DNA from: Anaerolineales bacterium
GTDB lineage: Bacteria; Chloroflexota; Anaerolineae; Anaerolineales; Villigracilaceae
Reading direction: 5' to 3'
DNA: 64,000 nt
Assembly: GCA_034432895.1 (NCBI GenBank)
Contig: DAOUBG010000007.1
Location: 6,956 to 70,955 of the forward strand
Of this stretch, positions 9,644-57,643 are shown one piece after another. The position numbers and the translations under genes are program-made. The notes under the pieces were generated by a model, which was given only the letters and a program-made list of their open reading frames with translations, searched no databases and was not told the DNA's origin. Position 1 is the first letter of the stretch. Each line of letters starts with the position of its first letter.

Positions 9644-9658
9644 ATTTTTCGGGAGGAA

Positions 9659-11937: not shown

Positions 11938-11941
11938 TCGA

Positions 11942-12721: not shown

Positions 12722-12778
12722 TGGCGGTGGACGGTAAGGAGGACCGTGGGAGGATGATGGACCGTGGTAACTGTGGCA
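12722..12778 (-). repeat. C/T-rich word repeat, locus D
   Basis: The minus strand reads ccacagttaccacggtccatcatcctcccacggtcctccttaccgtccaccgccat, in the aroF-aroA spacer. Confidence 0.5.
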
Positions 12779-12827
12779 TAGTCACAAGGCTTTAGGGGTA
12801 TGGCCTGGGAGTAGATGGTGAGAGAAA

Positions 12828-14911: not shown

Positions 14912-14965
14912 AACAAGCATCGGCTTTGTTCTACGGGTGTTTGTTCAGGAGGAGCATCGTTCCGT

Positions 14966-42216: not shown

Positions 42217-43029
42217 ATGGCGCTACGTGGGAATTTACGAGATTTTACGATCACCCAATTGCTCAACCTGGTCAGCTTGGCACAAAAGACCGGCACGCTC
42301 TTGATAGATGGACCGGGAAATGAACAGGCCAAAGCCAGTTTTCGCGAAGGCAAACTGGCGTATGCGCATATTGATCAGGAAGATGATCGCCTAGTTACGA
42401 TCTTGCACAAGGCTGGGAAGATCAGTGCCAATCAATATCGTGCCATCCTAGAGCGCGCCCATCAGATGAGCGATAAGGAGCTAGGCCTTTTGTTGGTCAA
42501 CGCGGGCTATCTTGCCCAGGAGGAGATCTTGCTGCTGCTCCAGGCACACTATACAGATGTGGTGCGTCGTCTGTTCACCTGGGTGGAGGGTGTTTTTCGT
42601 TTTGAAAGCGAGCTTCCTCCACCTCCCGATCGTATTCACGTGCGGATTGATCTGGAGAATCTGATCATCGAAGGCGCGCGTCAACTGCGAGAATGGGAGC
42701 AGCTGCAAGAGGAGATCCCAAGCCTGGATATGGCGCTTAAGTTTACCGATCGCCCGCTCCGGAATGTGAATTTGAGCATCGAAGAGTGGCGCGTCGTTTC
42801 ATACATCAACCCGAAAAACACCATTCGGCAGATTGCGGCAGCGAATAAAATGAACGAATTAGAGATTCGCCGCATTGTCTATGGCTTGCTTCAGGCTGGT
42901 TTGGTGGAATTGGTGCGTCCGGAAGGGGCCAAAGCGCCGGTGGCAACGCCACGCATGTTCCCCACGGAAAACCGCGAAGAGCAAAAATCTTTGATCAACA
43001 AACTCATTGGGCGTATTCGCAGCCTGTAA
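42217..43029 (+). CDS. DUF4388 / PATAN-domain protein with a C-terminal wHTH-like segment
   Basis: The N-terminus reads LRGNLRDFTITQLLNLVSLAQKTGTLLIDG...FREGKLAYAHI. The C-terminus reads NTIRQIAAANKMNELEIRRIVYGLLQAGLVELV. Confidence 0.75.
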   Translation: MALRGNLRDFTITQLLNLVSLAQKTGTLLIDGPGNEQAKASFREGKLAYAHIDQEDDRLVTILHKAGKISANQYRAILERAHQMSDKELGLLLVNAGYLAQEEILLLLQAHYTDVVRRLFTWVEGVFRFESELPPPPDRIHVRIDLENLIIEGARQLREWEQLQEEIPSLDMALKFTDRPLRNVNLSIEEWRVVSYINPKNTIRQIAAANKMNELEIRRIVYGLLQAGLVELVRPEGAKAPVATPRMFPTENREEQKSLINKLIGRIRSL

Positions 43030-43050
43030 TCCCCTGATGGAGATAGATGT

Positions 43051-43581
43051 ATGCAAACCGTAAAAATGGTCGTCACAGGTCCTTTCAATGCAGGTAAGAC
43101 GGAGTTCATTCAATCGGTGAGCGAGATCGACGTTGTCTCTACGGAGCGAAAGATCTCCAGTGCGGCTGAACGAGCGGTGAAAGAAGCGACTACGGTGGCA
43201 ATGGATTTTGGCCGTATCACGGTAGATGACGATCTGGTGCTTTATCTCTTTGGCACTCCCGGGCAGAAACGCTTTGACTTCATGTGGGAAATTCTTTCCG
43301 AGGGAATGTTGGGTTTTATTGTGCTGGTGGATTCCACCCGTCCGGAGACGTTCCGTGAGGCGCGCACCATTTTGGAGACTTTCCGGGCTTATGCTCCCAC
43401 GCCGTATGTGGTAGCAGCTAATAAGCAGGATTTGCCGGACGCGTGGGACTTGGAAGATATGCGCCATGCCTTGCGCTTGGATCCGAAGGTGAAACTCCTC
43501 CCATGTGTGGCGAAGGATAAGGAGTCGGTCAAGAAGGTGCTTTTGGAGCTTCTGTATAGCATTCTCGAAGAGATTGAATAG
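43051..43581 (+). CDS. small Ras-like GTPase of the CvnD / MglA-related (ATP/GTP-binding protein) family
   Basis: It has G1 GPFNAGKT, G3 LFGTPGQKRF and G4 ANKQD. The TTVAMDFGRI block is typical of conservon GTPases. Confidence 0.8.
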   Translation: MQTVKMVVTGPFNAGKTEFIQSVSEIDVVSTERKISSAAERAVKEATTVAMDFGRITVDDDLVLYLFGTPGQKRFDFMWEILSEGMLGFIVLVDSTRPETFREARTILETFRAYAPTPYVVAANKQDLPDAWDLEDMRHALRLDPKVKLLPCVAKDKESVKKVLLELLYSILEEIE

Positions 43582-43583
43582 CC

Positions 43584-44381
43584 GTGTCCTCGATCACAAC
43601 CGATCAGGGTATCGTTCACTACGAAGTGTATGGGCGCGGCCGGCCGGTCATCTTACTTCATGGCTGGTTGGGCTCTTGGGGGTTGTGGCAAGATACCATG
43701 ACCGTTCTGGGGCGTTTTTATCGTACGTATGCCCTCGATTTTTGGGGTTTTGGCGAATCGGGAAAGAAGCGCACCACCTATGCGGTGCAGGATTTCGTCA
43801 GCCTGGTCGATCAGTTCATGGAGCAATTGGGTATTACGCGTGCGCCGCTGGTTGGACACAGCATGGGAGGCACGGTTAGCCTATCGGTAGCGGTCGAGTA
43901 TCCTGAACGGGTGAGCAAGGTGGTCGTAGTTGGTTCGCCGATTGTCGGTTCCTCTTTGGCATTGCCTCTCAAGCTGGCCGGTTATCGCTGGATTGCTTAT
44001 TTGCTGTTCAGCAATATGCACCTTTTCCGTTGGGGATTGCGTCAGGCTTCTCCGCTGATTTGCCGCGATCCGCGTTTCCCGGATATGATGGATCGGGATC
44101 TTTCGCGCACCACCTTGGAATCATTCTTGCTCAGTATTGCCTCGCTGCGGCGCACCGATTTGCGTCCATTTTTACCTTCCATCCGCGTTCCGGTCATGGG
44201 AATTTATGGCGATAAGGATAATATTGTGCATCCGCGCCAATGGCAGCCTCTCCAAAAGGGAGTTCCGCATGCCGTGATCCGCCGCTTTCCGAAATCCGGC
44301 CATTTCCCGATGCTCGAAGAACACCAACGTTTTGTTGAAATGCTGAAAGCTTTTTTGGATGAACCGGAGGTAATGTTATGA
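43584..44381 (+). CDS. alpha/beta-fold hydrolase (paralogue 1)
   Basis: Motifs: VILLHGWLGSWGLW, the nucleophile elbow GHSMGG, the acid GDKDNIV, and His in SGHFPMLE. It has a GTG start 2 nt after the GTPase stop. Confidence 0.85.
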   Translation: MSSITTDQGIVHYEVYGRGRPVILLHGWLGSWGLWQDTMTVLGRFYRTYALDFWGFGESGKKRTTYAVQDFVSLVDQFMEQLGITRAPLVGHSMGGTVSLSVAVEYPERVSKVVVVGSPIVGSSLALPLKLAGYRWIAYLLFSNMHLFRWGLRQASPLICRDPRFPDMMDRDLSRTTLESFLLSIASLRRTDLRPFLPSIRVPVMGIYGDKDNIVHPRQWQPLQKGVPHAVIRRFPKSGHFPMLEEHQRFVEMLKAFLDEPEVML

Positions 44382-44971
44382 GTGCCATCTCTGGGGCGAA
44401 TGCAGTGACGCGTAGTTTTTGGATGGCTCTGGAAGAGATCCTGGGGCAAGAACAGGCGCAAAGAGTTGGTGAGCGTTCTCTGCAACTCTCGGATGGTTCT
44501 TCCTTTTCGCTGACGCAGCTGGCTGCTTTGCAAGGAGCATTGGAAGGCATGTATGGCATTGCAGCAGGGCGAGGGGTTGCTGTGCGCAGCGGACGGGCTT
44601 GGGTAAAGTATGGATTTCGATTGTTCTATGAAGAACTGGGATGGAACCGGATTGAATTTCGCCTATTGCCCCGTACCCATCGACTCGAACGCGGGTTGAG
44701 GGATCTGGCCAACTGGATGAATGCTCATTTGCATGAGCACTTTGAGGTGCGGCGAATTCCTGAAGGCTGGATTTGGCAGATTGAGGGTGTTCCAGGCAGC
44801 GTGGAAGCAATGGAAAGCACCCCAGGATGTTATTGGATGATCGGTGTGCTCGAAGAAGTTCTCCACCGACTGGGAGATGGGAAAATCTTCCTGGTGCGCG
44901 AGATTTCTTGTCGGGTCAGTGGTGCTCTTTCTTGTTTATTTGAAATCCCGGCCCGGCCGCTGGGAGATTGA
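44378..44971 (+). CDS. V4R (4-vinyl reductase) domain protein
   Basis: The C-terminus shows the V4R Cys pattern: GCYWMIGVLEEVLHRLGDGKIFLVREISCRVSGALSCLFEI. ATG 44378 overlaps the upstream stop (ATGA). Confidence 0.7.
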   Translation: MSAISGANAVTRSFWMALEEILGQEQAQRVGERSLQLSDGSSFSLTQLAALQGALEGMYGIAAGRGVAVRSGRAWVKYGFRLFYEELGWNRIEFRLLPRTHRLERGLRDLANWMNAHLHEHFEVRRIPEGWIWQIEGVPGSVEAMESTPGCYWMIGVLEEVLHRLGDGKIFLVREISCRVSGALSCLFEIPARPLGD

Positions 44972-44972
44972 G

Positions 44973-46247
44973 ATGCTCAAAGTTGTCTTGCACGCGCCGA
45001 ATCCGATTTTCCCGTTCCATGAGCCGGCGCGCGATCTGCGCATTCAGAATCATCCGCTTTGGCTCTGGCAACGCACCGTGCTCGCTCCGTATGTAGATCG
45101 AGAGCTGGAGCTCCGCCAAGGTCAGCCTCTTCCGCAGCGGCGCGAGGAGATGATCGTCTACCGCGATAATCTCTTTTTTGACGCGCCCTATATTGAGAAA
45201 TTCATTCAAGAAGCTCGGCGTGAGAAACGCGCGGTGCGCGCGGCTTTCTCTGCCGATGATCCGGCTTTTCGGGAACATGCTTTACCGCTTTCAATCTCTT
45301 ACACTCCTGCAGGGAACTTATATCTAGCCGATCTCTGGTACTATCCCAATGGACCTGTGCCGGATGCAGAGCCGCTGGTGATCGACTTAGAAGCTCGAGA
45401 GATCGGCTATTACCACGTTCCGAGCTATATGGCCGGCCAAACCGGTGATCTGACTTTTCAGGTTCCGCTGCGTGCCCTGATAGCTATTGATTCCTGGGTG
45501 CATATTTTTATTGCCGATATTGTTTTTGGTCTTTTTGCGCGTGGCGCTCGCTTCGAGAAGCGACTGAAGGAGAACCTGGGCTTCAAATTAAAGATCCTGG
45601 CTCGTGCTTTATATGAGGGCAAGCAACTCCTAGAGTGTTCTGAACTGGTGAAAATTGGAAAGAATTGCGTGATCGATCCGAGGGCCATTATTCACGGCCC
45701 GACGACTATAGGCGATAATGTCACCATTGGTGCCGGTACGGTGATCGAGAATTGCATTATCGGCAGCAACGTGAACATTTCTCAGGATTGCCAATTGATG
45801 CTTTCGGTTGTGGGGGATGGCACTTTTCTGCCTTTTCGCGCCTCGTTGTTTATGACCACGGTTATGGAGCACAGCATGGTGGCGCAAAATACCTGTTTAC
45901 AGATGTGCGTGGTCGGTCGCAATACGTTTATCGGTGCAGGTTCGACTTGGACGGATTATAATTTGATCCCTATTCCGATCCGTGCCCGTGATGGGCATGG
46001 CGAGTTGAAGCCGGCAAATCGGCCGGTGATGGGCGGATGTGTGGGCCATAACTGCCGAATCGGTTCGGGGATGGTGGTCTATCCGGCGCGCATTATTGAC
46101 TCGGATGTCGTTTTGGCGGCCTCTCAAGAACGGCGTGTGATCACCCGAGATGTGCTCTTTGAGGAGAGTGATCACCATCGTTGGAAACAGGGCTATTTGC
46201 ATCAGGCCCTTTATCATCGCCCCAAACCGGATGCGGAATCCTGGTGA
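44973..46247 (+). CDS. left-handed beta-helix (hexapeptide-repeat) protein with a GlmU-like degenerate nucleotidyltransferase-type N-domain
   Basis: Hexapeptide runs are present: IGKNCVIDPRAIIHGPTTIGDNVTIGAGTVIENCIIGSNVNISQDC...VGRNTFIGAGS...VGHNCRIGSGMVV. The start is at ATG 44973, 1 nt after the V4R stop. Confidence 0.7.
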   Translation: MLKVVLHAPNPIFPFHEPARDLRIQNHPLWLWQRTVLAPYVDRELELRQGQPLPQRREEMIVYRDNLFFDAPYIEKFIQEARREKRAVRAAFSADDPAFREHALPLSISYTPAGNLYLADLWYYPNGPVPDAEPLVIDLEAREIGYYHVPSYMAGQTGDLTFQVPLRALIAIDSWVHIFIADIVFGLFARGARFEKRLKENLGFKLKILARALYEGKQLLECSELVKIGKNCVIDPRAIIHGPTTIGDNVTIGAGTVIENCIIGSNVNISQDCQLMLSVVGDGTFLPFRASLFMTTVMEHSMVAQNTCLQMCVVGRNTFIGAGSTWTDYNLIPIPIRARDGHGELKPANRPVMGGCVGHNCRIGSGMVVYPARIIDSDVVLAASQERRVITRDVLFEESDHHRWKQGYLHQALYHRPKPDAESW

Positions 46248-47350
46248 TGGATACATTTGCTTTTATCATTCACCCGATCGATCCTAAGCGGGATGTCAGC
46301 CGCAAGTTTCCGTTCCTCGGCAAAGTATTGAGCGAACGGCAGATCGACTTTTTCTCTACTTTCTTTCCTCCTGTCTACATTTCGGAGATGGAAGGAATTG
46401 TTTCTGCTGACACCGGTAAAGAGATCAAGGGGTGGTTTGTAGCTTGCCCTTTGACCCCTCGGCGCATGCTGGAATTGCCGGTTTCGCAGGTGTATCAGAA
46501 AATTATCCAGACCGGACGGTTGGCCGAACGTTTGGGCGCAAAAATCCTGGGATTGGGCGCCTTCACCTCGGTGGTCGGTGATGCCGGAATCACGATTGCT
46601 CGCGCATTGGAGATACCGGTGACCACAGGCGATGCATATACGATTGCCATAGCCGTGCAGGCAACGATGAAGGCCGCCGAGATCATGGATTTGCCCCTCT
46701 CAGATGTGACTGTCGCTGTGGTGGGGGCGACCGGCGCGATTGGACGCGTCTGTGCCCATCTTTTGGCCTCGCAGGCCGGGCGCCTACTTTTGATTGCTCG
46801 CAATCCTGAAAAATTGGAAATGCTTGCAATGCAATTGAAGCCTCAGTCGTATGGAGAGGTTGTCTGGAGTACTGATCTATCCGATTTGCGGCAGGCGGCG
46901 GTCATTCTTACCGTTACCAGCGCAATTCATAGTATCATTGAGCCACAGCATTTGATGCCTGGAAGTGTAGTTTGTGATGTGGCACGCCCTCGTGATGTTT
47001 CTGCAATGGTAGCTGCCAGCAGAGATGATATATTGGTAATTGAGGGCGGCATGGTGGATGTTCCCGGTGCCGTGAACTTTCATTTTGATTTTGGATTTCC
47101 GCCCGGCAAAGCCTATGCTTGTATGGCCGAGACAATGGCATTGGCCCTCGAGGGACGTTTTGAGGATTATACTTTAGGAAAAGAGATCTCCCTGGAGCGC
47201 GTTCAGGAGATCACGCGAATCGCTGAGAAACACGGTTTTCGTTTGAGCGGCTTTCGCGCCTTTGAAAAAAACGTGACCGAAGAGCAAATTGAAACGGTCA
47301 AACAGAAGGCGCGATGGAAGCGTGCCGCAGCGAAGCATTCGTCGATCTGA
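46247..47350 (+). CDS. acyl-ACP reductase (AAR)-like NAD(P)-dependent oxidoreductase
   Basis: The protein is collinear with my recollection of cyanobacterial AAR: FAFIIHP, LGLGAFTSVVGD, TTGDAYT, VAVVGATGAIGRVCAHLL, and YACMAETMALALEG with the putative catalytic Cys retained, then ITRIAEKHGFR. The start overlaps the upstream stop (TGATG). Confidence 0.7.
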   Translation: MDTFAFIIHPIDPKRDVSRKFPFLGKVLSERQIDFFSTFFPPVYISEMEGIVSADTGKEIKGWFVACPLTPRRMLELPVSQVYQKIIQTGRLAERLGAKILGLGAFTSVVGDAGITIARALEIPVTTGDAYTIAIAVQATMKAAEIMDLPLSDVTVAVVGATGAIGRVCAHLLASQAGRLLLIARNPEKLEMLAMQLKPQSYGEVVWSTDLSDLRQAAVILTVTSAIHSIIEPQHLMPGSVVCDVARPRDVSAMVAASRDDILVIEGGMVDVPGAVNFHFDFGFPPGKAYACMAETMALALEGRFEDYTLGKEISLERVQEITRIAEKHGFRLSGFRAFEKNVTEEQIETVKQKARWKRAAAKHSSI

Positions 47351-47371
47351 AATCCTCTGCAGGAGGTTCTC

Positions 47372-48274
47372 ATGGGAAAAGCTCGTTTGCTCATTGTGGA
47401 AGATGATCCCGACATTGCCAACATGCTCAAAATCTATTTCACCAGCTTGGATTATGATGTGGAGATCGCCCCTCGAGGTAGGGATGCTCTTGAAAAGACG
47501 CGCCAGGGAATGCCTCATCTCATCATCTTGGATATCATGCTTCCGGATATTGATGGTTACGAGGTATGTCGCACGCTGCGCATGAATACGCGCACTAGTC
47601 ATATTCCGGTGATCTTCCTGACCCAAAAGGATGAACGCAGCGACAAATTACAGGGTCTAGAACTGGGAGCGGATGACTACATTACCAAACCCTTTGATAT
47701 TGAGGAGTTAAAACTGCGTGTCCAGGGTGCCATCCGACGGGCAGAGCGCGAAAGCTTGACCGATCCGCGTTCCGGTTTACCTGCAGGGCGGTTGATCGAG
47801 GATCAACTACGGCGCATCATCCGAGAAAAAGGTTGGGCTTTGCTCGATATCCGCATTAATCACTTTGAAGCCTTTCGCGATGTCTATGGGTTTGTGGCCG
47901 GTGACGATGTGCTGCGCTTTACGGCTATGCTCTTAAGCGAGGTCGTGGATGAACTGGGCACGCCGGATGATTTTATTGGCCATCCGGGAGGAGATAACTT
48001 TATTATTATTACATCTGAGATAGCAGCCCCCAGCATTAAACAGCGGTTGAAAACACGCTTTGCTGAGGAGGTGCTTTCACATTATAACTTTATCGATCGT
48101 CAACAAGGCTTTATGGTGGCGCCTAACAAGGATGGTGTGTTGGAAAAAGTACCTTTTATGAACCTGGCGATCGGTATTTTGCCTTCTACGGAGCATACGT
48201 TTACCGACATTCGCGAAATCACCGAAATGGCGGCTGAAATGCGGCGTCAGGATGTGACATCCAGCCCGGCGTGA
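47372..48274 (+). CDS. response regulator with a degenerate GGDEF output domain
   Basis: It has a REC domain (LLIVEDDPDI...ILDIMLPDIDG...GADDYITKPF) and a GGDEF-like domain whose signature is GGDNF. The upstream FKxxNDxxGH block reads FEAFRDVYGF. Confidence 0.85.
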   Translation: MGKARLLIVEDDPDIANMLKIYFTSLDYDVEIAPRGRDALEKTRQGMPHLIILDIMLPDIDGYEVCRTLRMNTRTSHIPVIFLTQKDERSDKLQGLELGADDYITKPFDIEELKLRVQGAIRRAERESLTDPRSGLPAGRLIEDQLRRIIREKGWALLDIRINHFEAFRDVYGFVAGDDVLRFTAMLLSEVVDELGTPDDFIGHPGGDNFIIITSEIAAPSIKQRLKTRFAEEVLSHYNFIDRQQGFMVAPNKDGVLEKVPFMNLAIGILPSTEHTFTDIREITEMAAEMRRQDVTSSPA

Positions 48275-48293
48275 GATCGTTTGAGATCGGATT

Positions 48294-51200
48294 ATGTTTG
48301 CTAATTTGGGCATTGGACTTACTCTACTCATATCAGGGCTTGGGATCATGCTCTTAATCATCGGCGCTGTGAATTTGTTGCAGCGGCAACAGAGACGCAC
48401 GCCGAGTTCTCCATCCTTTTCTTTGTCTGAAATCTCCGTTGGAGAGGGGCAGGAGGGCATTCTAATTCTGGTGGGAGGTAGGGTTGAATATATCAATGCC
48501 CAAGCGCGTGCCCTTTTTGGCTTGGCGGAAGATGAGTTCCCTGATCTGGAGCGCCTCACGCGCCGTGCCCGTCCGGCCGAAGATTTTCTCGACCTGTGTG
48601 CTTTGCCATCGGAGAAATACTTCACGGTCAATGGTCAACGAGTAGAGGCCCATTCTTATGCTTTGCCTCTTTTTACTGCTGCCACTTTTGTTCGTTTACG
48701 CCCTTTAGAATCCGCCGATACGATTGAAACGCAGAGTGTTCTCAGGGCGTTCATGGAATTTATTCAGGAGATCGGCACGGAAACGAACCTTCCGGATGGT
48801 TTGCAAAAGATTGCTTATCACTTAGCCCACTTTTTTGCCTATGAGTTCCTAGAAATTAAACTTTGGCATCCTGAGCGCGAAGAATGGACTCTTTACACGT
48901 TTAGCGAACGAGATCAATATTTGCCTCGCTCTATTGCGTTCGATGCTTCGCGCTTTGGCGCACAATATCTGAGGCTTTCTTCTGAAAATCCCATACTGGT
49001 TTCTTTTGTCGATGAGTCCTCGGATGCGCCTATTCGTTCTTATCTTGGTCTGTTTTTGGAAATAGGAGGGGAGAAGATTGGGGTACTAGAAATGGGGGCG
49101 TTAGCAGTAGATCGATTTAGTGAAAAAGACGCGCATTTCCTTCAAATGCTGAGAATTCCTCTCAGCATCGCGTTGCACAATATTCTCAAGCAGGAAACAT
49201 TACAACGCCGTTTGGAAGAACTAAGCGGACCGGTTCATTTGGCCCAGGCAATCGGAGCAATCCAAGAACCACAGGAACTGTTTTCACGCTTGATCGAGCA
49301 TCTGCGTCCGTTCTTTCCTGCCGAAGTGCTCGGATTCCTGTTGTATGATGCGGAACGAAATCTGCTTTACGCTCAAAAACCCTTCTATGGCCTACCGGAG
49401 CATATTATCGATATCTATCACGCCATTGTTCCCATTGGCAGCCAGGGTGAAAAGTTGCTCGGAAGACATGATATTGCTTTTACGGCCGATCCGGGAAGTG
49501 ATCCGCTTTGGGTGAGCTTGGGAATTCACACGGTGGCATTAGCAGCCAGTTTGCGTAATGCCGTCCTGGCACCGCTGGTTTCAGGGGAAGAATTCATCGG
49601 CTATTTGCAGATTGCCAATTATCGAGAGGAGACTCCGTTTTCGGATGAGGAGAAACGTGTTCTCGAAAGCTTGATGCCGCAGATCACCAGCATTGTGAAG
49701 GGTGCTCTGTTGGTGCAGCAAGCGCGTCAGCGCTTCCAACGTACTGAGGCACTTCGAAGGATCGCCCAGCTGGTTGTTTCAGAGGTGCCTTTAGATGAGA
49801 TCCTCAAGTTTTCTTTGCAAGAGATGGCACGCCTTTTTCAGGCCGATTTTGGTGCCATCTATTTGCTGGATGAGGAGCGCGGTCGCCTAATCTTACATCG
49901 GCTTTCGTTGTGGAATGTTTCTCCCGAACAAGCAACGCATCTCGAAGAATTGTATCTGGGACAAGATTACTATCACACCATTTCCGGCGCACAATGTCCC
50001 TTTATCTCGAGTTATTTGAGCCGTGATGAGCGCGTACTGCCGCTCTATCGTGGGATTGTTGAACGTTTTGGGGTAGAGTCCTCTATGGTCGTCCCTTTGA
50101 TTGCGCGTGGTCGGAGCCTGGGGGAATTGATGTTGGGGAAAAAGGCCACCAACGCCTTTCGCCATGAGGACCTACAGGTATTGTTAACGGCTGTCAGCCA
50201 ATTGGCTAGTGCTATTGAGAGTCGTCGTCTGTATGGCCTGACAGACGAAGCATTGCAACGCCGCTTGGACCTTTTTTCTGCAATGACCCGTATTACCCGT
50301 GAGTTGCATGTTGTTTTGGATGTTAAGCGGGTGATGCGGGTGATTCACGACGAAAGCTTACGGTTGTTGAAGGCCGATTGTGGTTCGATTTACCTTTTGG
50401 TCGAAAATGGCTCTGAGGCTTCGCCACGCTTTGAGCGGCTTTTCGGGTGTGAAATGGAATCCTTGCTTCCTTATGAAATCGAAGCGATCCAGAAACGAGA
50501 AACCCTATTCCTGGATTTTTCTCAAAAGGAAACTTCTCTTTCGCCGCACGAGGAAGTGCGTTCAGCGTTGGTCTCTCCGATCCTGTATGGGGATCGGGCG
50601 ATCGGTTTGCTCGATCTTCACTTTCACCGTCGTCGTTCTGTAGATGAAGACACCATCCAGATTCTTGAAATGTTAGCCGCTCAAGCCGGGATTGCCTTGG
50701 TCAATGCCCGCGCCTACGCAAAAGAGCTGGAACAGGCCGCCCTTTTCCGTATCCGTGCTCAGGCGCTCCAGGAACTGGAATCCTTGAACCGGCGACTGAG
50801 TGCAACTTCTTCGCTGGAAGAAGCTTTGCATGAGGTGGCCGTTTCGATCACTCGTGTCTCGCCGTTTGACGTGGCGCTGATTAGCGTTTATCAGCCCCAA
50901 GAAGGAATGTTGCGCCGTGTGGCTGGAGTGGGGATTGCACCGGAAACGATGCGGGAACTATTGCTCAGGCATCAGCCCTGGGAAGCCTTACAGACCTTAT
51001 TACGACCGGAATTTCGGATTGAGCAGGCTTATTTCATTCCTGCCGAGCAAATGCCGGTCATTCCTCCTGAAGTGCACACGGTTACCCTGGCTACGGCCGC
51101 TTCTGAATCCCAGGCAAATGTCTGGAACCCTGAAGATTTCCTGCTCTTTCCGCTTTTGGATGCCGATGGGAGCCCGGTAGGTCTGATCAGTGTGGATATG

Positions 51201-54200
51201 CCGCGTGACAAGCGTCGCCCGGATCGGGTGACCATCGAGGTAATTCAAGCCTTCGCTGCCCAGGCGACGCGCTGGATTTTGCACTTCCGGCGGTTAGAAG
51301 AGGCGCAAACGGAAGTTGAACGGACGCAGATCGCCTTGCAGCGTCAGCAGATGCTGTTCTCGGTGGCGCAAGGACAATTACCGGTTCTGTTGCATAACGA
51401 TCTGGAGCATGTTCTGTCATTGCACGCGCTGGAAAGCCGGCAGCGTCGTATTCGCGCGATCTTGACGATTACCGAGGTGGTCAGCCGTCAGCCGGATGTT
51501 AATATGGCATTGACCCAATTGGGACGGGAACTGCTCACCCGTCTGGAGATGAGCACAGTGCTGGTGGCCGAAGCGAGCGCTGAGGGACCTGTGCTGCGCC
51601 AAGTTTTCGGACAGATTCCTGCAGATGCTTATGTAGAAACGCTCTTCGGCCAACGTAATCCTTTGCGCGTAGCCCTCCAAAGCGGTGAATTGATGTTGGT
51701 CTCCACTCTTGAGGAAAGCGAGGAATGGCGCGATAACCCTCTATTAAACGCTTTGAACACCAAGGGTTTCATCTGCTTACCGCTAGTGGTGGGCGAAAAT
51801 CCGAGCGCGGCCGTGCTGGCGATTAGTAACCAGCCTTTGCCGGCTTTTACCGAGGATGATCGAGCGCTCTATGCACAGGTTAGCCGACAGTTAGCCATTA
51901 TTCTCCAGAATATTTCTCTGTTCACCCAAACACGCCGCCGCTTGCAGGAAGTTAACCTGTTGTTGGAATTCAGCCGACGTATTGCTGGGGCCGGGCCGAT
52001 AGAAATCTTCGAACTTCTGTTGAGCAATGTGCGTCAGGTGATCACAGCAGCGCATGCCGGCGTGGCGTTGCTTTGGAATGAACGCGAACGCGTTTTGGAA
52101 CCTGTGGTGGCACAGGGCTATATGGATAGCAAAGCCATGCTGGCCATGCGCTATCGCAGCGGGGAAGCCTTACCCGGCCAGGTCTTTGAGAGCCGTCGAG
52201 TGCGTCGGGTGGTGGAAGTTAACTTTATGCGCGATTACCCACTGAACCCGGAGCAACTATCGCTTTATCGTCAAGCTGTTGCCCAGCGCTTACCGGTTTC
52301 GTCGTTAGTGGTGCCTATCCAAAGTGCTAATACTACTCTGGGTGTGCTTGTGTTGGATAATTTCAATCAGCCGCAAGCCTTTTCCCAGGCAGATGAAGAT
52401 CTGGTTCTCTCTCTGACACAACAGGTAACGTTGTTCCTGGAGAATATGCGCCTGTTGCAGGCCGCTCAGGAGCGTGCTTTGCAGATGGAGGCGCTTTCCT
52501 CGGCAGCCACCGAACTCACTGCACGCCTCCACCGCGAGGATATTATTGCCACCCTTCTGGATCGACTCAAGGGGATTCTTCCTTACGATGCGGCAATCCT
52601 GTGGTTGCGAGAAGGGGATCGAATGCGTGTCTGGGCGGCGCGCGGTTTTTCCGATCTGGAAGAGTATCAGGGACTTTCCCTTTCGATTCACGAGAGCGCT
52701 TTGCTCCAAGAGATGATACGGACCGGCCAACCGCTCTCAGTCGAGGATGTACGCAACGATCCACGCTTTCCACCAATGGAGGCGGCGCGTCTTTCTTGGT
52801 TGGGGCTGCCGTTGATGGCAAAAGGTGAATTGATCGGCGTGATCGCTTTGGAAAAATGGGAGGCCCATTTTTATACCCATGAGAAAATTCAGCTAGGTTT
52901 GACGTTTGCAAACCAAGCCGCGATCGCTCTGGAGAATGCCCGCCTATTTGACGAAAGCCAACAACGCGCGGCAGAACTTGATGAACGTTCTCGCCGTCTG
53001 AGCGTGCTCAATCGCCTTTCGGGCAGGTTGGCCGCAACGTTGGACGCGGATGAGATTTTACGCCTGACCGCCGGAGAGCTCTTCGGCGCGCTAAATGCTG
53101 ATTTTCTTGCGGGCATTGTCTTTGTAGAAGAACACCCGTATTTGCATTCCGTGCTTCCTTCGGGGCGGTTGGCATCCACGGAAATTTCCCCTTCTCCTCT
53201 TTTCCAACGGTTTATCGAGGGGAGTGGTGTCTTTGTGACCGAAAGGGCGGCTCAAGAGCCCGACCTGCAACCCCTTTTACCGGCATGGAGACAGGAACTG
53301 CCGTATTTGCTTGCCTTGCCTTTGATGATCGGCGAGGCCTTGCGAGCTGTCTACCTGATTCAGCGATTGAACACTCCTTTCACCGCTGCGGAGATCGAAC
53401 TGGCGCGCACCATGGCCAACCAGACCTCCATTGCTCTGGAAAACGCGCGTCTCTATCAATCTACTGTACGCACCGCCGAACGCTTTGCTATTCTGAACCA
53501 AGTGAGCGCGGAGATCGGCGCAACACTGGAGATCGAAGAACTTGCCCAAACGGTATATCAGGCTGCTACCCGTCTTTTCCCGCTGGAGGCGTTTGTCTTT
53601 GCCCTGGCCAATGAGGCCGAGCGTGTGGTGGAGGTCGCCTATCTTGTAGATAAAGGAGAAGTGCTGACTCCAATGCGGCTGAAATGGGGTCAAGGGATTA
53701 GTGGACAAGTTATCGCCGGTGGCGAGCCCATTCTGACGCATACGTTGGAGGAGAGCAGAGCCTTGCGCGCAGCACCGCGTGGCGAATTGCCCGCATCCAT
53801 TTTAGCCGTGCCTATTCGTCAGGGAGAAAAGGTTGTCGGTGCGCTTTCGATCCAGAGCTATCGTCCCTATGCTTACACCGACGAGGATTTGCAAATTTTC
53901 AGCACGTTATCCAACCAGGTGAGCGTGGCATTGCAGAATGCGCGCCTGTTTGCCGAGGCGCAGGCGCTGGCCGAAAACCTCGAACAACGGGTGCGCGAAC
54001 GTACGGCGGAACTGGAGCGCGAGAAGCGCAATACCGAAACCCTCTTGCGCATTTTCAGCGAAGTCTCTGCCACGCTGGATCTCGACCGTGCCTTACATCG
54101 TACCCTGAGCCTGCTCAACGATGCAGTGGGGGCAGAGCAAGGCACGATCATGCTTCTAAATCCGCAGGATTTTCTTCTCTACTATCGTGCTGGATATGGA

Positions 54201-55646
54201 TATGCATCTGAGCGCGCTGAGGATGCAGTCCAGAAAAAAGGCTTCCGTATTGGAGAGGGATTGGCCGGTTGGGTTGTTGCTCATCGCGAGGCTGTTTTGA
54301 TCGAAGATTTGACCAAAGATGAGCGCTGGGTTCCGACAGAGACTTCCCGAGAACATCGTAGTGCTGTCGGCGTTCCTTTGATGGTGGGCGAAAATATCTT
54401 GGGTGTATTAATGGTGTTCCATCGCCAGGTGGGCTTTTTCAACCAGGATTCCCTCAATTTGATCAAGGCCATCGCCGGCCAGGTTTCGATCGCCATCAAT
54501 AATGCCAATCTATATCAATTGATCCGTGAGCAATCCGAACGCCTGGGTTATCTCTATCGCCAGCAAGCGGAAGAGGCTAGCCGTTCTCAGGCCATCCTGG
54601 AGGCTGTGGCCGATGGTGTGTTGGTAACCGATGCCGAAAACCGTATTTCCTTCCTCAACCGCTCAGCCGAGCGCATTTTGCACCTTGAAGCGACGCGCAT
54701 TCTCGGACAATCGTTGGCGGATTTTGCTGGATTGTTCGGCAAGGCGGCTCGCGAGTGGATCAACACGATTCATCGCTGGTCCGAGGATCCCTCCTCCTAT
54801 CAGCCCGGTGAATCCTATGTGGAGCGCATTGAACTGGATGATGGACGAGTGGTACTGGTACACCTGGCGCCGGTAATCCTCCAAAACGAATTTCTAGGTA
54901 CCGTTTCTATTTTCCGTGATATTACTCACGAAGTCGAAGTGGATCGTTTGAAATCCGAATTTGTTGCCACGGTGAGCCACGAATTGCGCACTCCGATGAC
55001 TTCGATCCGTGGCTATGTGGACCTCTTGCTGATGGGCGCGGCCGGCGCTCTGAATGAGATGCAGGCGAATTTCTTGAACGTGATCAAAAGCAATACCGAG
55101 CGCTTGAACGCGCTGGTTGCCGATCTGCTCGATATTTCCCGTATCGAAGCCGGAAGGGTTATGCTTACGCCGCAGCCGCTCAACTTGCGCCACATCGCCG
55201 AAGAATCGTTGGCAGAAATCCAACGCCGCTCACAACAAGAGAATAAACCGATGACTTTCACGTTAGAAGCGGCGACACCTTTGCCTTTGGCCTTTGGGGA
55301 TATGGAACGAGTACGTCAGATCATCGGCAATTTGCTCGAAAACGCGTATTCCTATACCCCGGCCGGGGGCCGAATCCAGGTGCGCCTGCATGCTGAGGGC
55401 AACGAAGTTCAGGTAGATGTACAAGATAGTGGAATCGGCATTTCACCACAGGACCAGGCGCGCGTTTTTGAGCGCTTCTATCGTGGGGAGCATCCTCTGG
55501 TGATCGAAACTCCGGGCACCGGTTTGGGGCTTTCCATTGTCAAGCAACTGGTTGAAATGCACGGTGGACGCATCTGGGTCACCTCGAGCGGCGTGTACGG
55601 GGAAGGAAGTACATTCTCTTTCACGCTTCCAATCTATACAAGTTAG
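48294..55646 (+). CDS. membrane-anchored hybrid-size sensor histidine kinase: TM, PAS-like, 11 GAF, PAS, HisKA, HATPase_c
   Basis: The 2450-aa protein has one N-terminal TM helix. Eleven GAF-terminal helices of the form Q(A/V)(A/S)IAL-NARL(F/Y) can be counted in the translation. The H-box is SEFVATVSHELRTPMTSIRGY, with N/G boxes NLLENAYSYTP, DSGIGI and GTGLGLSIVK. Confidence 0.9.
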   Translation: MFANLGIGLTLLISGLGIMLLIIGAVNLLQRQQRRTPSSPSFSLSEISVGEGQEGILILVGGRVEYINAQARALFGLAEDEFPDLERLTRRARPAEDFLDLCALPSEKYFTVNGQRVEAHSYALPLFTAATFVRLRPLESADTIETQSVLRAFMEFIQEIGTETNLPDGLQKIAYHLAHFFAYEFLEIKLWHPEREEWTLYTFSERDQYLPRSIAFDASRFGAQYLRLSSENPILVSFVDESSDAPIRSYLGLFLEIGGEKIGVLEMGALAVDRFSEKDAHFLQMLRIPLSIALHNILKQETLQRRLEELSGPVHLAQAIGAIQEPQELFSRLIEHLRPFFPAEVLGFLLYDAERNLLYAQKPFYGLPEHIIDIYHAIVPIGSQGEKLLGRHDIAFTADPGSDPLWVSLGIHTVALAASLRNAVLAPLVSGEEFIGYLQIANYREETPFSDEEKRVLESLMPQITSIVKGALLVQQARQRFQRTEALRRIAQLVVSEVPLDEILKFSLQEMARLFQADFGAIYLLDEERGRLILHRLSLWNVSPEQATHLEELYLGQDYYHTISGAQCPFISSYLSRDERVLPLYRGIVERFGVESSMVVPLIARGRSLGELMLGKKATNAFRHEDLQVLLTAVSQLASAIESRRLYGLTDEALQRRLDLFSAMTRITRELHVVLDVKRVMRVIHDESLRLLKADCGSIYLLVENGSEASPRFERLFGCEMESLLPYEIEAIQKRETLFLDFSQKETSLSPHEEVRSALVSPILYGDRAIGLLDLHFHRRRSVDEDTIQILEMLAAQAGIALVNARAYAKELEQAALFRIRAQALQELESLNRRLSATSSLEEALHEVAVSITRVSPFDVALISVYQPQEGMLRRVAGVGIAPETMRELLLRHQPWEALQTLLRPEFRIEQAYFIPAEQMPVIPPEVHTVTLATAASESQANVWNPEDFLLFPLLDADGSPVGLISVDMPRDKRRPDRVTIEVIQAFAAQATRWILHFRRLEEAQTEVERTQIALQRQQMLFSVAQGQLPVLLHNDLEHVLSLHALESRQRRIRAILTITEVVSRQPDVNMALTQLGRELLTRLEMSTVLVAEASAEGPVLRQVFGQIPADAYVETLFGQRNPLRVALQSGELMLVSTLEESEEWRDNPLLNALNTKGFICLPLVVGENPSAAVLAISNQPLPAFTEDDRALYAQVSRQLAIILQNISLFTQTRRRLQEVNLLLEFSRRIAGAGPIEIFELLLSNVRQVITAAHAGVALLWNERERVLEPVVAQGYMDSKAMLAMRYRSGEALPGQVFESRRVRRVVEVNFMRDYPLNPEQLSLYRQAVAQRLPVSSLVVPIQSANTTLGVLVLDNFNQPQAFSQADEDLVLSLTQQVTLFLENMRLLQAAQERALQMEALSSAATELTARLHREDIIATLLDRLKGILPYDAAILWLREGDRMRVWAARGFSDLEEYQGLSLSIHESALLQEMIRTGQPLSVEDVRNDPRFPPMEAARLSWLGLPLMAKGELIGVIALEKWEAHFYTHEKIQLGLTFANQAAIALENARLFDESQQRAAELDERSRRLSVLNRLSGRLAATLDADEILRLTAGELFGALNADFLAGIVFVEEHPYLHSVLPSGRLASTEISPSPLFQRFIEGSGVFVTERAAQEPDLQPLLPAWRQELPYLLALPLMIGEALRAVYLIQRLNTPFTAAEIELARTMANQTSIALENARLYQSTVRTAERFAILNQVSAEIGATLEIEELAQTVYQAATRLFPLEAFVFALANEAERVVEVAYLVDKGEVLTPMRLKWGQGISGQVIAGGEPILTHTLEESRALRAAPRGELPASILAVPIRQGEKVVGALSIQSYRPYAYTDEDLQIFSTLSNQVSVALQNARLFAEAQALAENLEQRVRERTAELEREKRNTETLLRIFSEVSATLDLDRALHRTLSLLNDAVGAEQGTIMLLNPQDFLLYYRAGYGYASERAEDAVQKKGFRIGEGLAGWVVAHREAVLIEDLTKDERWVPTETSREHRSAVGVPLMVGENILGVLMVFHRQVGFFNQDSLNLIKAIAGQVSIAINNANLYQLIREQSERLGYLYRQQAEEASRSQAILEAVADGVLVTDAENRISFLNRSAERILHLEATRILGQSLADFAGLFGKAAREWINTIHRWSEDPSSYQPGESYVERIELDDGRVVLVHLAPVILQNEFLGTVSIFRDITHEVEVDRLKSEFVATVSHELRTPMTSIRGYVDLLLMGAAGALNEMQANFLNVIKSNTERLNALVADLLDISRIEAGRVMLTPQPLNLRHIAEESLAEIQRRSQQENKPMTFTLEAATPLPLAFGDMERVRQIIGNLLENAYSYTPAGGRIQVRLHAEGNEVQVDVQDSGIGISPQDQARVFERFYRGEHPLVIETPGTGLGLSIVKQLVEMHGGRIWVTSSGVYGEGSTFSFTLPIYTS

Positions 55647-55666
55647 GTGAGATATAGAGGTAAAAG

Positions 55667-56041
55667 ATGGCAAAAATTCTGGCTGCAGAAGACGAACGCG
55701 ATATTCGAGATCTGATCGCCTTTACCTTGCGCTTTGCAGGTCATGAGGTTACCACTGCCACGAATGGTGAAGAGGCGGTGGCAATGGCCGAACAGGTTCA
55801 GCCGGACCTGATTTTGCTGGATGTGCGCATGCCGCGTATGAATGGCTATGATGCCTGTCGTGCTATCAAAGCCAACCCACGTCTAAAGGATATACCGGTG
55901 ATTTTCCTTTCGGCAAAAGGGCAGGAGTCCGAGGTCCAGGCAGGGTTGCAGGCCGGAGCCGAGGAATATCTCCTCAAGCCCTTTGCTCCTGATCAATTGA
56001 TCGAGCGTGTGCGAGCGATTCTGGCAAAATTCGGGAAATAG
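55667..56041 (+). CDS. single-domain CheY-like response regulator
   Basis: The protein reads ILAAEDERDIRDLI...ILLDVRMPRMNGYD...SAKGQ...YLLKPF. Confidence 0.92.
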   Translation: MAKILAAEDERDIRDLIAFTLRFAGHEVTTATNGEEAVAMAEQVQPDLILLDVRMPRMNGYDACRAIKANPRLKDIPVIFLSAKGQESEVQAGLQAGAEEYLLKPFAPDQLIERVRAILAKFGK

Positions 56042-56053
56042 CTTGCTACTACT

Positions 56054-56842
56054 ATGAGCGCCATTTTGCTGGATGGTTCAATTGTGCACTATGAGGTGTT
56101 GGGGCGTGGCCGCCCCATCATCTTCCTGCATGGTTGGCTTGGCTCATGGCGCTATTGGATTTCCTCGATGCAGGTTACTTCCACCCTCTTTCGCTCCTAT
56201 GCTCTCGATCTGTGGGGCTTCGGCGATACTGCCCGTCTGAAAGAGGGATATTCGATCGATCGGCAGGCGTTGCTGGTACGCCAGTTTATGGAAAATATGG
56301 GGATCGGAAAAGTCGCGCTGATCGGTCATTCTTTGGGCGGGCTGGTAGCTTTTCGCTTCGCGGCACGCTGGCCTGAATCGGTAGACCGCATGATGGTTAT
56401 CAGCACGCCTCTTGATGCCACTGCCATTTCCCCGCGTTGGTTGAACGCTTCTTTGCCCGATCTACTCAACTGGTTGACCAGCCGTTCTCCAGAAGCGCAA
56501 AATGCTCTTTCCGATGCTCTGCGTGCCGATCCTCAAACGCTCACCGTTTCTTTCCAAACGACGAGCTTTTCTCGCCTTTTCAACGAAATGCTTCCGACTC
56601 GCATTCCTTGCCTGCTCGTCTACGGGGAAAACGATCCGGCCGTGGTTGCCCCGTTGCTTGAGCAAGTCTTCCCCCTTCCTTCGCATATTCACCAGATCGT
56701 CCTTGAAGATACTGCCCATTTCCCCATGCTGGATCAACTGGCGCTCTTTCAGCGCTTACTGGTTGATTTCCTGGCCTTGGCCTCCGGCGATAGCCCGCGC
56801 GAACTGCAATTGAAAGAGGAGTGGCGTCGCCGCGTAAGATAA
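56054..56842 (+). CDS. alpha/beta-fold hydrolase (paralogue 2)
   Basis: Its N-terminus, GSIVHYEVLGRGRPIIFLHGWLGSWRYW...YALDLWGFGDT, parallels the 43584 gene. The triad is GHSLGG, GENDPAV and TAHFPML. Confidence 0.85.
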   Translation: MSAILLDGSIVHYEVLGRGRPIIFLHGWLGSWRYWISSMQVTSTLFRSYALDLWGFGDTARLKEGYSIDRQALLVRQFMENMGIGKVALIGHSLGGLVAFRFAARWPESVDRMMVISTPLDATAISPRWLNASLPDLLNWLTSRSPEAQNALSDALRADPQTLTVSFQTTSFSRLFNEMLPTRIPCLLVYGENDPAVVAPLLEQVFPLPSHIHQIVLEDTAHFPMLDQLALFQRLLVDFLALASGDSPRELQLKEEWRRRVR

Positions 56843-56950: not shown

Positions 56951-56970
56951 TATGGGTTCGAATGCCATGA

Positions 56971-56998
56971 CCATCCTCCGCCGTGGAGGATGGTTTTT
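56971..56998 (+). terminator. riboswitch expression platform: terminator hairpin that also sequesters the SD
   Basis: CCATCCTCC-gccgt-GGAGGATGG is followed by TTTTT and then directly by the thiN ATG (56999). The 3' arm contains GGAGGA. Confidence 0.7.
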
Positions 56999-57643
56999 AT
57001 GTCCGAACGCGTGGTGATCTTCGCGAATGGGAGCCTCCCGGCTCCGCAGCGCCTGCGTCTCCTTTTGCAGGAGGGGGATATCCTGCTCGGCGCGGATGGC
57101 GGTGCTCGTCATATCCTTGCCCTGGGTTTGAAGCCCCAGGCTGTGATCGGCGATTTTGATTCGCTCTCTCCGCAAATCCTGAACTTCCTTTCTACCGAGG
57201 GGACGCGCCTGCATCGCTATCCTGCCGATAAGGATGAAACGGACCTTGAACTGACCTTGCGCCACGCCTTGGAATATCGGCCGCGTGCCATCCGCATCGT
57301 TGCCGCGCTCGGCGATCGCCTCGATCAGACGTTGGGCAATCTTGCCCTCCTGAGCGCACCCTGGCTGGAAGGCGTGGATGTGCGCTTGGAAGATGGCTTG
57401 GAAGAGGTCTTCCTCGTGCGCACCGAAGCCGCCATCCAGGGATCGATCGGCGAAACTGTTTCGCTCATCCCCTGGGGCGGGGCGGCTGAAGGCGTTTTCA
57501 CGCAAGGATTGCGTTGGGCCCTCCGCGGCGAGACGCTCTATCCCTACCGCACACGCGGTATCAGCAACGAGCTCATCCATCCCCAGGCGCAGATCCGCCT
57601 GACCCGTGGTTCCCTGATTGTCGTCCATCGTCATTCTGACTAA
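56999..57643 (+). CDS. thiN: thiamine pyrophosphokinase
   Basis: The protein reads VVIFANGSL...LLGADGGARHILALGLKPQAVIGDFDS...DKDETDLELTL. Confidence 0.85.
   Translation: MSERVVIFANGSLPAPQRLRLLLQEGDILLGADGGARHILALGLKPQAVIGDFDSLSPQILNFLSTEGTRLHRYPADKDETDLELTLRHALEYRPRAIRIVAALGDRLDQTLGNLALLSAPWLEGVDVRLEDGLEEVFLVRTEAAIQGSIGETVSLIPWGGAAEGVFTQGLRWALRGETLYPYRTRGISNELIHPQAQIRLTRGSLIVVHRHSD

Follow-up and report, generated by a model that had tools for sequence, protein, structure and literature searches.

How is a small Ras-like GTPase of the MglA family regulated when its operon holds no gene for a Roadblock/MglB protein? The question is raised by a 64,000-nucleotide stretch of an Anaerolineales genome (the window; GenBank contig DAOUBG010000007.1), in which a PATAN/DUF4388 protein, a GTPase, an alpha/beta hydrolase and a V4R-fold protein are encoded one after the other at 42217-44971. 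The four genes, as named in the initial annotation of this DNA, were recovered from the open reading frames (ORFs), from Pfam and from AlphaFold2 modelling followed by Foldseek searches. They come first in a plus-strand operon of ten genes (operon 1, 42217-56842) whose junctions range from -4 to +21 nt. The annotation had also stated that GTPases of this family are normally encoded beside a Roadblock/MglB gene, which agrees with the published census (390 of 449, counting coupling within four genes; Wuichet & Sogaard-Andersen 2015, PMC4316618), and had proposed V4R as a possible regulatory (GAP/GEF-like) or ligand-sensing partner in its place. Our reading, to which we assign a probability of about 0.5, is that a G-protein system conserved across Anaerolineales is divided between two operons, one of which lies in the window; the MglA/MglB switch would be split, with a V4R sensor subunit of its own for each half.

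The absence of Roadblock from the window was examined at several levels. No Pfam match to Roadblock was found among the operon 1 products or among 10 other small ORFs of the window. Seven annotated Roadblock genes, each the neighbour of a homologous GTPase on a plasmid of Thermus, Deinococcus, Streptomyces or Euzebya, served to build a Roadblock hidden Markov model (HMM). This model was run unfiltered on the window together with 90 related loci, in all six frames of the 1.56 Mb. Nothing was returned at E<=10 in the six frames of the 64-kb window, and Roadblock was absent from the operon and within 10 kb in 89 of the 90 related loci. A Roadblock domain concealed in the V4R, the PATAN or the left-handed beta-helix (LbH) protein of the operon was also considered and rejected, as hhalign gave probabilities of 0.2%, 1.0% and 0.1%, respectively, and the HMM no match. 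For PATAN this exclusion holds at the profile level, its single-sequence AlphaFold2 model (pLDDT 44) being unusable. The claim that the operon encodes no Roadblock protein was therefore upheld by Pfam, by the unfiltered HMM and by hhalign alike.

The sole Roadblock match in the 1.56 Mb was located at 64-435 of one related locus, L077 (E 2.5e-27; Pfam Robl_LC7, 66 bits), and it revealed a second gene array. The order in L077 was Roadblock, V4R, a gene for a receiver (REC)-GGDEF-like regulator and a GT2 glycosyltransferase gene, followed by PATAN, GTPase and hydrolase. At least 498 metagenome-contig relatives of this Roadblock were found, and the best 80 were 86-93% identical to it, a conservation like that of the GTPase. 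Of the Roadblock loci whose downstream sequence was long enough, 63 of 64 had a V4R gene directly 3' of Roadblock, at a median distance of 11 nt. The REC-GGDEF-like gene (RECb) followed in 35 of 46 loci and the GT2 gene in 34 of 39, and the Roadblock-linked V4R (V4R-R) was still beside Roadblock in 11 loci that had no RECb. Since the genes upstream of Roadblock were not conserved, Roadblock is apparently the first gene of this second operon (operon 2). In two further loci, L099 and L101, the 12-gene array was complete, the Roadblock operon coming first and being followed at once by the PATAN-GTPase operon, so that the two operons are joined, co-directional and contiguous in three assemblies (L077, L099 and L101). 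An Asp-Gly pair was invariant in the Roadblock alignment; the same feature is reported for those MglB proteins that are coupled to MglA of Groups 2-5 (PMC4316618). In addition, the published table gives Anaerolinea thermophila one MglA, which is PATAN-coupled, and one orphan MglB, ANT_03760 (PMC4316618 Table S2). The V4R-R sequence had no tblastn match in 72,556 plasmids. A 4146-bp metagenome contig (L129, 569-3810) carried tandem Roadblock-V4R pairs in the order Roadblock-V4R-GT2-Roadblock-V4R, which may reflect a duplication or an assembly artefact.

The window GTPase presents G1 GPFNAGKT at residue 10, TT at 47-48 in G2, GTPGQ at 68 in G3 and NKQD at 124 in G4, the G1, G3 and G4 motifs being exactly those given in the initial annotation, and its G5 region is CVAK. 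Among 85 orthologues, G2, G3 and G4 were invariant and G1 was near-invariant as GPF[S/N]AGKT, with two variable positions and mostly S in place of the window's N. The best PDB sequence matches of the protein were Asgard Arf and MglA. In the published classification, Groups 2-5 of MglA have a Thr that replaces the intrinsic Arg at G2 together with a GTPGQ G3, and a canonical [NT]KxD G4 sets Groups 1, 4 and 5 apart from Groups 2 and 3 (PMC4316618). With its P-loop G1, GTPGQ, TT and canonical G4, the window GTPase has the motif set of Group 5, and we class it, approximately, as Group 5-like from these motifs and from the published listing of an Anaerolinea thermophila protein. That protein, ANT_06780 (179 aa), is tabulated as MglA Group 5 with the arrangement '<MglA><PATAN>' and no coupled MglB (PMC4316618 Table S2), and we infer from its length and PATAN coupling, not from its sequence, that it is the orthologue of the window GTPase. 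Similarly, 176-aa PATAN-MglA pairs without MglB are listed for Chloroflexus, Roseiflexus and Herpetosiphon (PMC4316618); as these pairs were tabulated there, the MglB-less PATAN-GTPase pair of Chloroflexi has been known since 2015. The term 'CvnD-like' used for the GTPase in the initial annotation is approximate, since the canonical G4 points to Group 5. CvnD belongs to Group 2, and this identity was rejected because G4 is NKQD and not NxFD, G5 is CVAK and not DAR, and the operon has neither DUF742 nor Roadblock.

We then determined how far the gene order of operon 1 extends. More than 8000 close homologues of the GTPase were found; the top 120 were 86-100% identical, and all those with a taxon name belonged to Chloroflexota. 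A scan of GTDB with one genome per species gave at least 559 GTPase relatives, of which the best 80 loci, from Anaerolineales genomes, were examined. The PATAN-GTPase arrangement recurred in 80 of these 80 species-representative loci with differing flanks, the upstream flanks varying between clades; 77 loci extended far enough downstream to be judged, and in 74 of them a V4R gene followed the hydrolase or the GTPase. The full order PATAN-GTPase-hydrolase-V4R-LbH-reductase-REC/GGDEF-kinase was kept in 48 of the 80; most of the remaining loci ended at a contig edge or were without one accessory gene, chiefly the reductase. In at least 5 species, the core PATAN-GTPase-hydrolase-V4R stood alone beside unrelated housekeeping genes. 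This arrangement is far from chance, and because gene order is kept across the species loci, the link of V4R to this GTPase subfamily is real and under selection. The proteins differ in their rate of change. Median identity to the window copy was 88% for the GTPase, 77% for the hydrolase, 77% for the REC-GGDEF-like regulator, 74% for the LbH protein, 73% for PATAN (82 loci) and 71% for the reductase, while the window V4R averaged ~32% identity to the other cassette V4Rs, which makes it the most variable and fastest-evolving protein of the cassette.

Several lines of evidence define the 197-aa product of this cassette V4R gene (V4R-C). Its match to Pfam V4R (PF02830) reached 29.6 bits against a gathering score of 31 (E 7e-7) and covered residues 148-190 only; many members of its family carry a precomputed PF02830 match, and the Roadblock-linked paralogue scored 43 bits. 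A family profile search collected 784 proteins, many of them annotated as '4-vinyl reductase' or 'predicted hydrocarbon binding protein', and an exhaustive search of 1.84 billion cluster representatives gave 1348 clusters at E <= 0.001. Searches of PDB by sequence returned nothing meaningful, either with the single sequence or with a 51-sequence profile, and only the fold search was informative. The AlphaFold2 model, built on an alignment of 51 family members, had a pLDDT of 84 and a pTM of 0.85. In Foldseek it matched H-NOX (E 1e-6, TM ~0.6), the sensor domains of PoxR (5e-4), MopR (1e-3) and DmpR (3e-3) at 16-21% identity, and TRAPPC3/Bet3 (E 3e-3 to 8e-3, TM 0.42-0.52), in all cases with a probability of 1.0, and there was no Roadblock among its Foldseek matches. 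The modelled protein thus shows the V4R fold, with the two-layer arrangement of helices on a four-stranded sheet of the PoxR, MopR and DmpR sensor domains. The initial annotation had put forward a structure prediction as a check, and its outcome was a V4R/H-NOX-type fold, not the alpha-beta-alpha sandwich of Roadblock. The same set of folds (V4R, H-NOX and TRAPPC3) was grouped in a structural study of Asgard TRAPPC3 (PMC10933270). A canonical haem-binding H-NOX reading, suggested by the top fold match, was rejected on sequence grounds, as the family has no invariant histidine and its Cys-rich pattern is typical of V4R.

The cysteines of V4R-C are C151, C178 and C186, so that the pattern is C-x26-C-x7-C and not the C-x(24)-C-x(7)-C of the initial annotation. 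Across the family, C151, E160 and C186 do not vary, E175 and C178 hardly vary, and two arginines, R73 and R95, are invariant as well. C151, E175, C178 and C186 may correspond to the zinc site of MopR/PoxR, a Cys/Glu cluster that ties the last helix to the sheet. V4R-C is predicted to be a small-molecule binding subunit. In two proteins, P0363 (396 aa) and P0327 (355 aa), a V4R domain of the same subfamily is the C-terminal part of a TIR fusion (N-terminal TIR_2, 3e-26 and 3e-23), which suggests that effectors of the TIR type can use V4R as their sensor. No V4R-GTPase or V4R-Roadblock fusion was seen among 150 family representatives, the long ones being TIR-V4R proteins or proteins with unassigned N-terminal extensions.

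Comparison of 82 cassette V4Rs (V4R-C) with 64 Roadblock-linked V4Rs (V4R-R) separated the two contexts completely. For all 146 sequences the nearest neighbour was of the same context type, and the Roadblock-linked set formed a single cluster. Sequences of different types were 42% identical; among cassette V4Rs identity was 52%, and among Roadblock-linked V4Rs 74%. Judged by these sequences, V4R-C and V4R-R are distinct paralogues. The two operons share two pairs of paralogous genes, one for V4R and one for the REC-GGDEF-like regulator.

The composition, order and conservation of both operons, and their fusion in three assemblies, were read directly from the loci. On this basis, the split switch could work as follows. 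Operon 1 would supply a PATAN adaptor, the Group 5 GTPase, a hydrolase, V4R-C, the LbH protein, a reductase, a REC-GGDNF regulator, a GAF kinase, a REC protein and a second hydrolase, and operon 2 would supply Roadblock/MglB, V4R-R, a second REC-GGDEF-like regulator and the GT2 glycosyltransferase. The unlinked Roadblock would be the cognate MglB-type GTPase-activating protein (GAP) of the window GTPase. V4R-C on the GTPase side and V4R-R on the GAP side would serve as ligand-binding regulatory subunits and make the GTP/GDP switch responsive to a small, probably hydrophobic, molecule. The hydrolase, the reductase and the LbH protein may make or convert this ligand, while the GAF kinase and the REC proteins would tie the switch to phosphorelay signalling. 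A role of V4R as the signal-input subunit is argued for by its ligand-binding fold family, by the fast evolution of V4R-C, by the TIR-V4R fusions and by the protoglobins that occupy the same positions in Thermus. In the best reading of this genomic linkage, V4R would be a companion or sensor partner of the Roadblock-GTPase pair and not a Roadblock substitute. A more ambitious version, in which both V4Rs, Roadblock and possibly PATAN form one regulatory complex on the MglA-type GTPase that responds to a lipid-like ligand, is doubtful at present. If it were true, the V4R-Roadblock-GTPase complex would join a Bet3-fold subunit to a Roadblock/longin-type platform in a bacterium, and would carry the TRAPP-Rab logic, by functional analogy or distant relationship, beyond archaea and eukaryotes.

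Some observations weigh against the split-switch reading. Operon 2 does not lie in the 64-kb window, and its presence in the source organism is inferred from relatives; Roadblock was found within 10 kb in only 1 of the 80 GTDB loci. V4R-C is absent in 3 of the 80 species and the hydrolase in two loci (L009, a context locus, and L086 of the 80), so that neither is strictly required. Moreover, the window V4R-C falls in a divergent subclade of 7 members from which four cysteines common to most of the family (positions 138, 141, 150 and 181) have disappeared, and its closest relatives, P0005-P0007, are also without E175 and C178; because of these losses, the metal site, and perhaps ligand binding, may be degenerating in this subclade. 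Finally, both V4R copies are near REC-GGDEF-like paralogues and so may serve that branch instead of the GTPase. This last point leads to the main alternative, which is possible and which we rate clearly below the split switch, in which V4R stands outside the G-protein switch, as a sensor or carrier for the enzyme branch or as a partner of the REC-GGDEF-like regulators or the GAF kinase, and shares the operon by pathway only. RECb follows V4R-R in the proportion given above and its counterpart in operon 1 (RECGG) lies 2-3 genes after V4R-C; the V4R domains of PoxR, MopR and DmpR are effector-binding sensors, TRAPPC3 binds an acyl chain and operon 1 encodes lipid-type enzymes. The TIR-V4R fusions indicate that the module plugs into varied effectors, and the far faster evolution of V4R-C than of the GTPase also fits a place outside the switch. 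However, V4R-R keeps its tight position after Roadblock even where RECb is missing, and V4R-C is kept with PATAN, GTPase and hydrolase in at least 5 species whose locus is without LbH, reductase, REC and kinase.

The proposal of the initial annotation that V4R replaced Roadblock and is itself the GTPase's GAP or guanine nucleotide exchange factor (GEF) appears the least probable of the alternatives. It would account for the missing Roadblock in the operon and its surroundings and for V4R as a conserved neighbour of the GTPase; the invariant R73 and R95 could in principle be catalytic, and the fold is common to Bet3, a subunit of the TRAPP Rab-GEF. Against it speaks a strongly conserved Roadblock of the lineage, which has the Asp-Gly signature of Groups 2-5 and lies in one array with the operon in three assemblies; an orphan MglB is also present in Anaerolinea thermophila, and three species have operon 1 without V4R-C. 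An identity of ~32% for V4R against ~88% for the GTPase across the same species would also be unusual for a catalytic partner, and because V4R-C evolves so much faster than the GTPase and TIR fusions exist, a ligand sensor fits better than a GAP or GEF. What remains of the proposal is the conserved neighbourhood of V4R and the GTPase, while the role as a stand-in is not supported, given the Roadblock gene found elsewhere in the lineage. The annotation had held that its inference would weaken if a Roadblock gene sat elsewhere as the conserved partner and V4R showed no co-occurrence; the former was found, and the latter was not, V4R accompanying both halves. It is also unlikely, though less so, that the Roadblock-V4R operon serves another GTPase or NTPase and is adjacent by coincidence, the window GTPase being an orphan regulated by PATAN or by intrinsic hydrolysis. 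The operons are usually unlinked, as in eight 20-kb Roadblock loci without the GTPase cassette within 10 kb, and orphan genes of both kinds are on record, 59 for MglA and 328 for MglB (PMC4316618). Nevertheless, the V4R and REC-GGDEF-like gene pairs are common to both operons, three independent assemblies have the operons side by side and in the same direction, the table for Anaerolinea thermophila names a single MglA-family GTPase and a single MglB, and the sampled Roadblock and GTPase relatives are similarly conserved.

The locus can be compared with several known systems. The MglA Group 5/PATAN/MglB modules have the same GTPase signature (GTPGQ, Thr at G2, NKxD) with PATAN directly upstream; they are usually an adjacent MglB-PATAN-MglA triad, whereas here MglB is in a separate operon, and the V4R and REC-GGDEF-like paralogues of both operons, the enzymes and the giant GAF kinase are not mentioned for them (PMC4316618). 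The actinobacterial conservon likewise encodes an MglA-family GTPase together with a histidine kinase and accessory regulators, and its CvnD-type GTPase is also annotated as 'ATP/GTP-binding protein'. The conservon consists of the CvnA histidine kinase, the Roadblock CvnB, the DUF742 protein CvnC and the GTPase CvnD, of which DUF742 and Roadblock are missing from operon 1; unlike the conservon, operon 1 has an NKQD G4 (not NxFD with a DAR G5), a cytoplasmic multi-GAF giant kinase, PATAN and V4R. A further parallel was seen in DUF4388-GTPase-Roadblock-protoglobin clusters on Thermus and Deinococcus megaplasmids, whose PATAN-GTPase pair is 47-53% identical to that of the window. In these clusters, stand-alone sensors come right after the GTPase and after Roadblock, with cyclic di-GMP-type genes nearby, as here. 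They differ in that the sensor is a haem protoglobin and not V4R, that Roadblock is in the same operon and that hydrolase, LbH protein and reductase are absent. In one of them, on Thermus brockianus pTB1 (L092, NZ_CP016313.1, 5354-11848; also L091), the genes are DUF4388, GTPase, protoglobin, protoglobin-like, Roadblock, protoglobin, EAL and HD-GYP, and the cluster is a haem-sensor-equipped PATAN-MglA-MglB module beside cyclic di-GMP turnover genes.

The V4R fold recurs in Bet3/TRAPPC3, which belongs to the core of TRAPP, the eukaryotic exchange factor of Rab GTPases; this makes a bacterial linkage of V4R, Roadblock and a small GTPase of interest. We know of no established role of prokaryotic V4R proteins beyond the aromatic-sensing activators, and, to our knowledge, a link between V4R and small GTPases or Roadblock/longin proteins has so far been drawn from structural resemblance and Asgard domain inventories. 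In the present loci, conserved gene order ties V4R to an MglA-family GTPase in 80 species, and a paralogous V4R is tied in the same way to Roadblock in 63 of 64 loci. As in the TRAPP core, where Bet3/TRAPPC3 and longin subunits act on Rab, the V4R fold is genomically linked with a platform protein and a small Ras-like GTPase, but the platform is Roadblock and not longin, and the fold match of V4R-C to TRAPPC3 is weaker than those to H-NOX and to PoxR/MopR. TRAPP is also a GEF complex of membrane trafficking, a context missing from the bacterial system, in which gene linkage is what joins V4R, Roadblock and the GTPase. The phenol-responsive activators PoxR, MopR and DmpR share the fold, but V4R-C is stand-alone and not fused to an AAA+ activator. 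In the searchable literature, which leaves many subscription papers outside its scope, V4R was not found tied to bacterial MglA/MglB, and the comparative-genomic work that the initial annotation invoked as linking V4R and Roadblock in GTPase neighbourhoods was not found either. Only the Asgard TRAPPC3 study, in which a role in ligand binding is likewise suggested and a Zn site described (PMC10933270), and unrelated works contained V4R, Roadblock and GTPase together, and a 2008 study of V4R/Bet3 by Podar et al. does not discuss GTPase neighbourhoods (PMC2253512). The two operons thus offer a concrete bacterial system for asking if V4R-fold proteins regulate small GTPases, and the split is a likely reason why some MglA and MglB genes, as one class, appear as 'orphans'. 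The host organisms are uncultured or difficult to cultivate, but all the proteins look soluble and are of small size, which makes in vitro work feasible.

Coordinates of the operon 1 genes and of the downstream hairpin in the window, with the evidence for each assignment
Feature	Coordinates	Strand	Evidence
PATAN/DUF4388 protein, 270 aa	42217..43029	+	Pfam DUF4388 E 3.7e-28, residues 4-161
MglA-family (Group 5-like) small Ras-like GTPase, 176 aa	43051..43581	+	Pfam ATP_bind_1 1.4e-21, Ras 3.8e-10, Arf
Alpha/beta-fold serine hydrolase, 265 aa	43584..44381	+	Abhydrolase_1 1.3e-32, 113.8 bits
V4R-fold protein V4R-C (cassette paralogue), 197 aa	44378..44971	+	Pfam V4R 29.6 bits, AlphaFold2/Foldseek
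LbH (left-handed beta-helix, hexapeptide) protein, 424 aa	44973..46247	+	Hexapep and LbH_EIF2B matches, residues ~225-330
Reductase, acyl-ACP reductase/PigE N-terminal-like, 367 aa	46247..47350	+	NCBIfam PigE N-terminal region 1.3e-64, AcACP_reductase 6.8e-33
Response regulator, receiver and degenerate GGDEF-like domain	47372..48274	+	Response_reg 5.9e-30; GGDEF 4.7e-11, partial
Giant multi-GAF histidine kinase, 2450 aa	48294..55646	+	ORF; Pfam listings of orthologues
Stand-alone receiver domain protein, 124 aa	55667..56041	+	Response_reg 1.1e-31
Second alpha/beta hydrolase, last operon gene, 262 aa	56054..56842	+	Abhydrolase_1 5.9e-24
Terminator-like hairpin, 12-bp stem and T-run	56969..57005	+	Top-ranked site in consensus scan, pattern match only

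The remaining products of operon 1 were also inspected. The first hydrolase has a triad of Ser93 (in GHSMGG), Asp212 and His240 that is invariant in 83 orthologues; its catalytic triad is, by these residues, intact, in agreement with the initial annotation. Its gene begins with a GTG 2 nt past the GTPase stop, and its own stop is overlapped by the V4R-C start (ATGA). The ORF list places the LbH start at GTG 44844, with a 128-nt overlap with the V4R gene; we take ATG 44973 as the start because homologues are 424-425 aa long and this start leaves a 1-nt spacing after the V4R stop. The N-terminal ~220 aa of the LbH protein (44973-45630) matched no Pfam, NCBIfam or PDB family and contain very many invariant residues, the pattern of an uncharacterised, strongly constrained domain. 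The reductase start overlaps the LbH stop (TGATG), and both NCBIfam matches of the reductase are far below the cut-offs, with PDB matches to 4ppm (1e-38) and 6jzq (2e-25). In the regulator at 47372-48274, the GGDEF match covers profile positions 3-107 of 161 and the motif reads GGDNF in 60 of 63 orthologues; given this motif and the partial match, the receiver-GGDEF-like protein is probably not an active cyclase. In the paralogue beside Roadblock-V4R (L077, 1049-1933) the GGDEF motif is wholly absent. Orthologues of the giant kinase carry many GAF matches in precomputed Pfam, HisKA and HATPase_c being listed for the shorter version in L009. The second hydrolase gene starts 12 nt past the stand-alone receiver gene, and the strong terminator-like hairpin 3' of it, at 56969-56995, likely marks the end of operon 1.

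The PATAN protein (for the domain, reportedly, Makarova et al. 2006) consists of a PATAN domain with an alpha-helical insertion and a C-terminal region resembling a winged helix-turn-helix; with a profile of 23 orthologues, residues 174-236 gave weak MarR-family matches (E 0.022-0.7). The helical insertion (window 42397-42543, residues 61-109) gave a weak, sub-cut-off match to an MshEN-type cyclic di-GMP-binding motif (NCBIfam NF053729, E 0.0035), which is notable because operon 1 also encodes a GGDEF-like protein. The key arginine of this motif seems replaced in the second repeat. Elsewhere in the window, the G+C content at 8000-16000 was 62-64%, compared with ~52% in the region of the GTPase operon.

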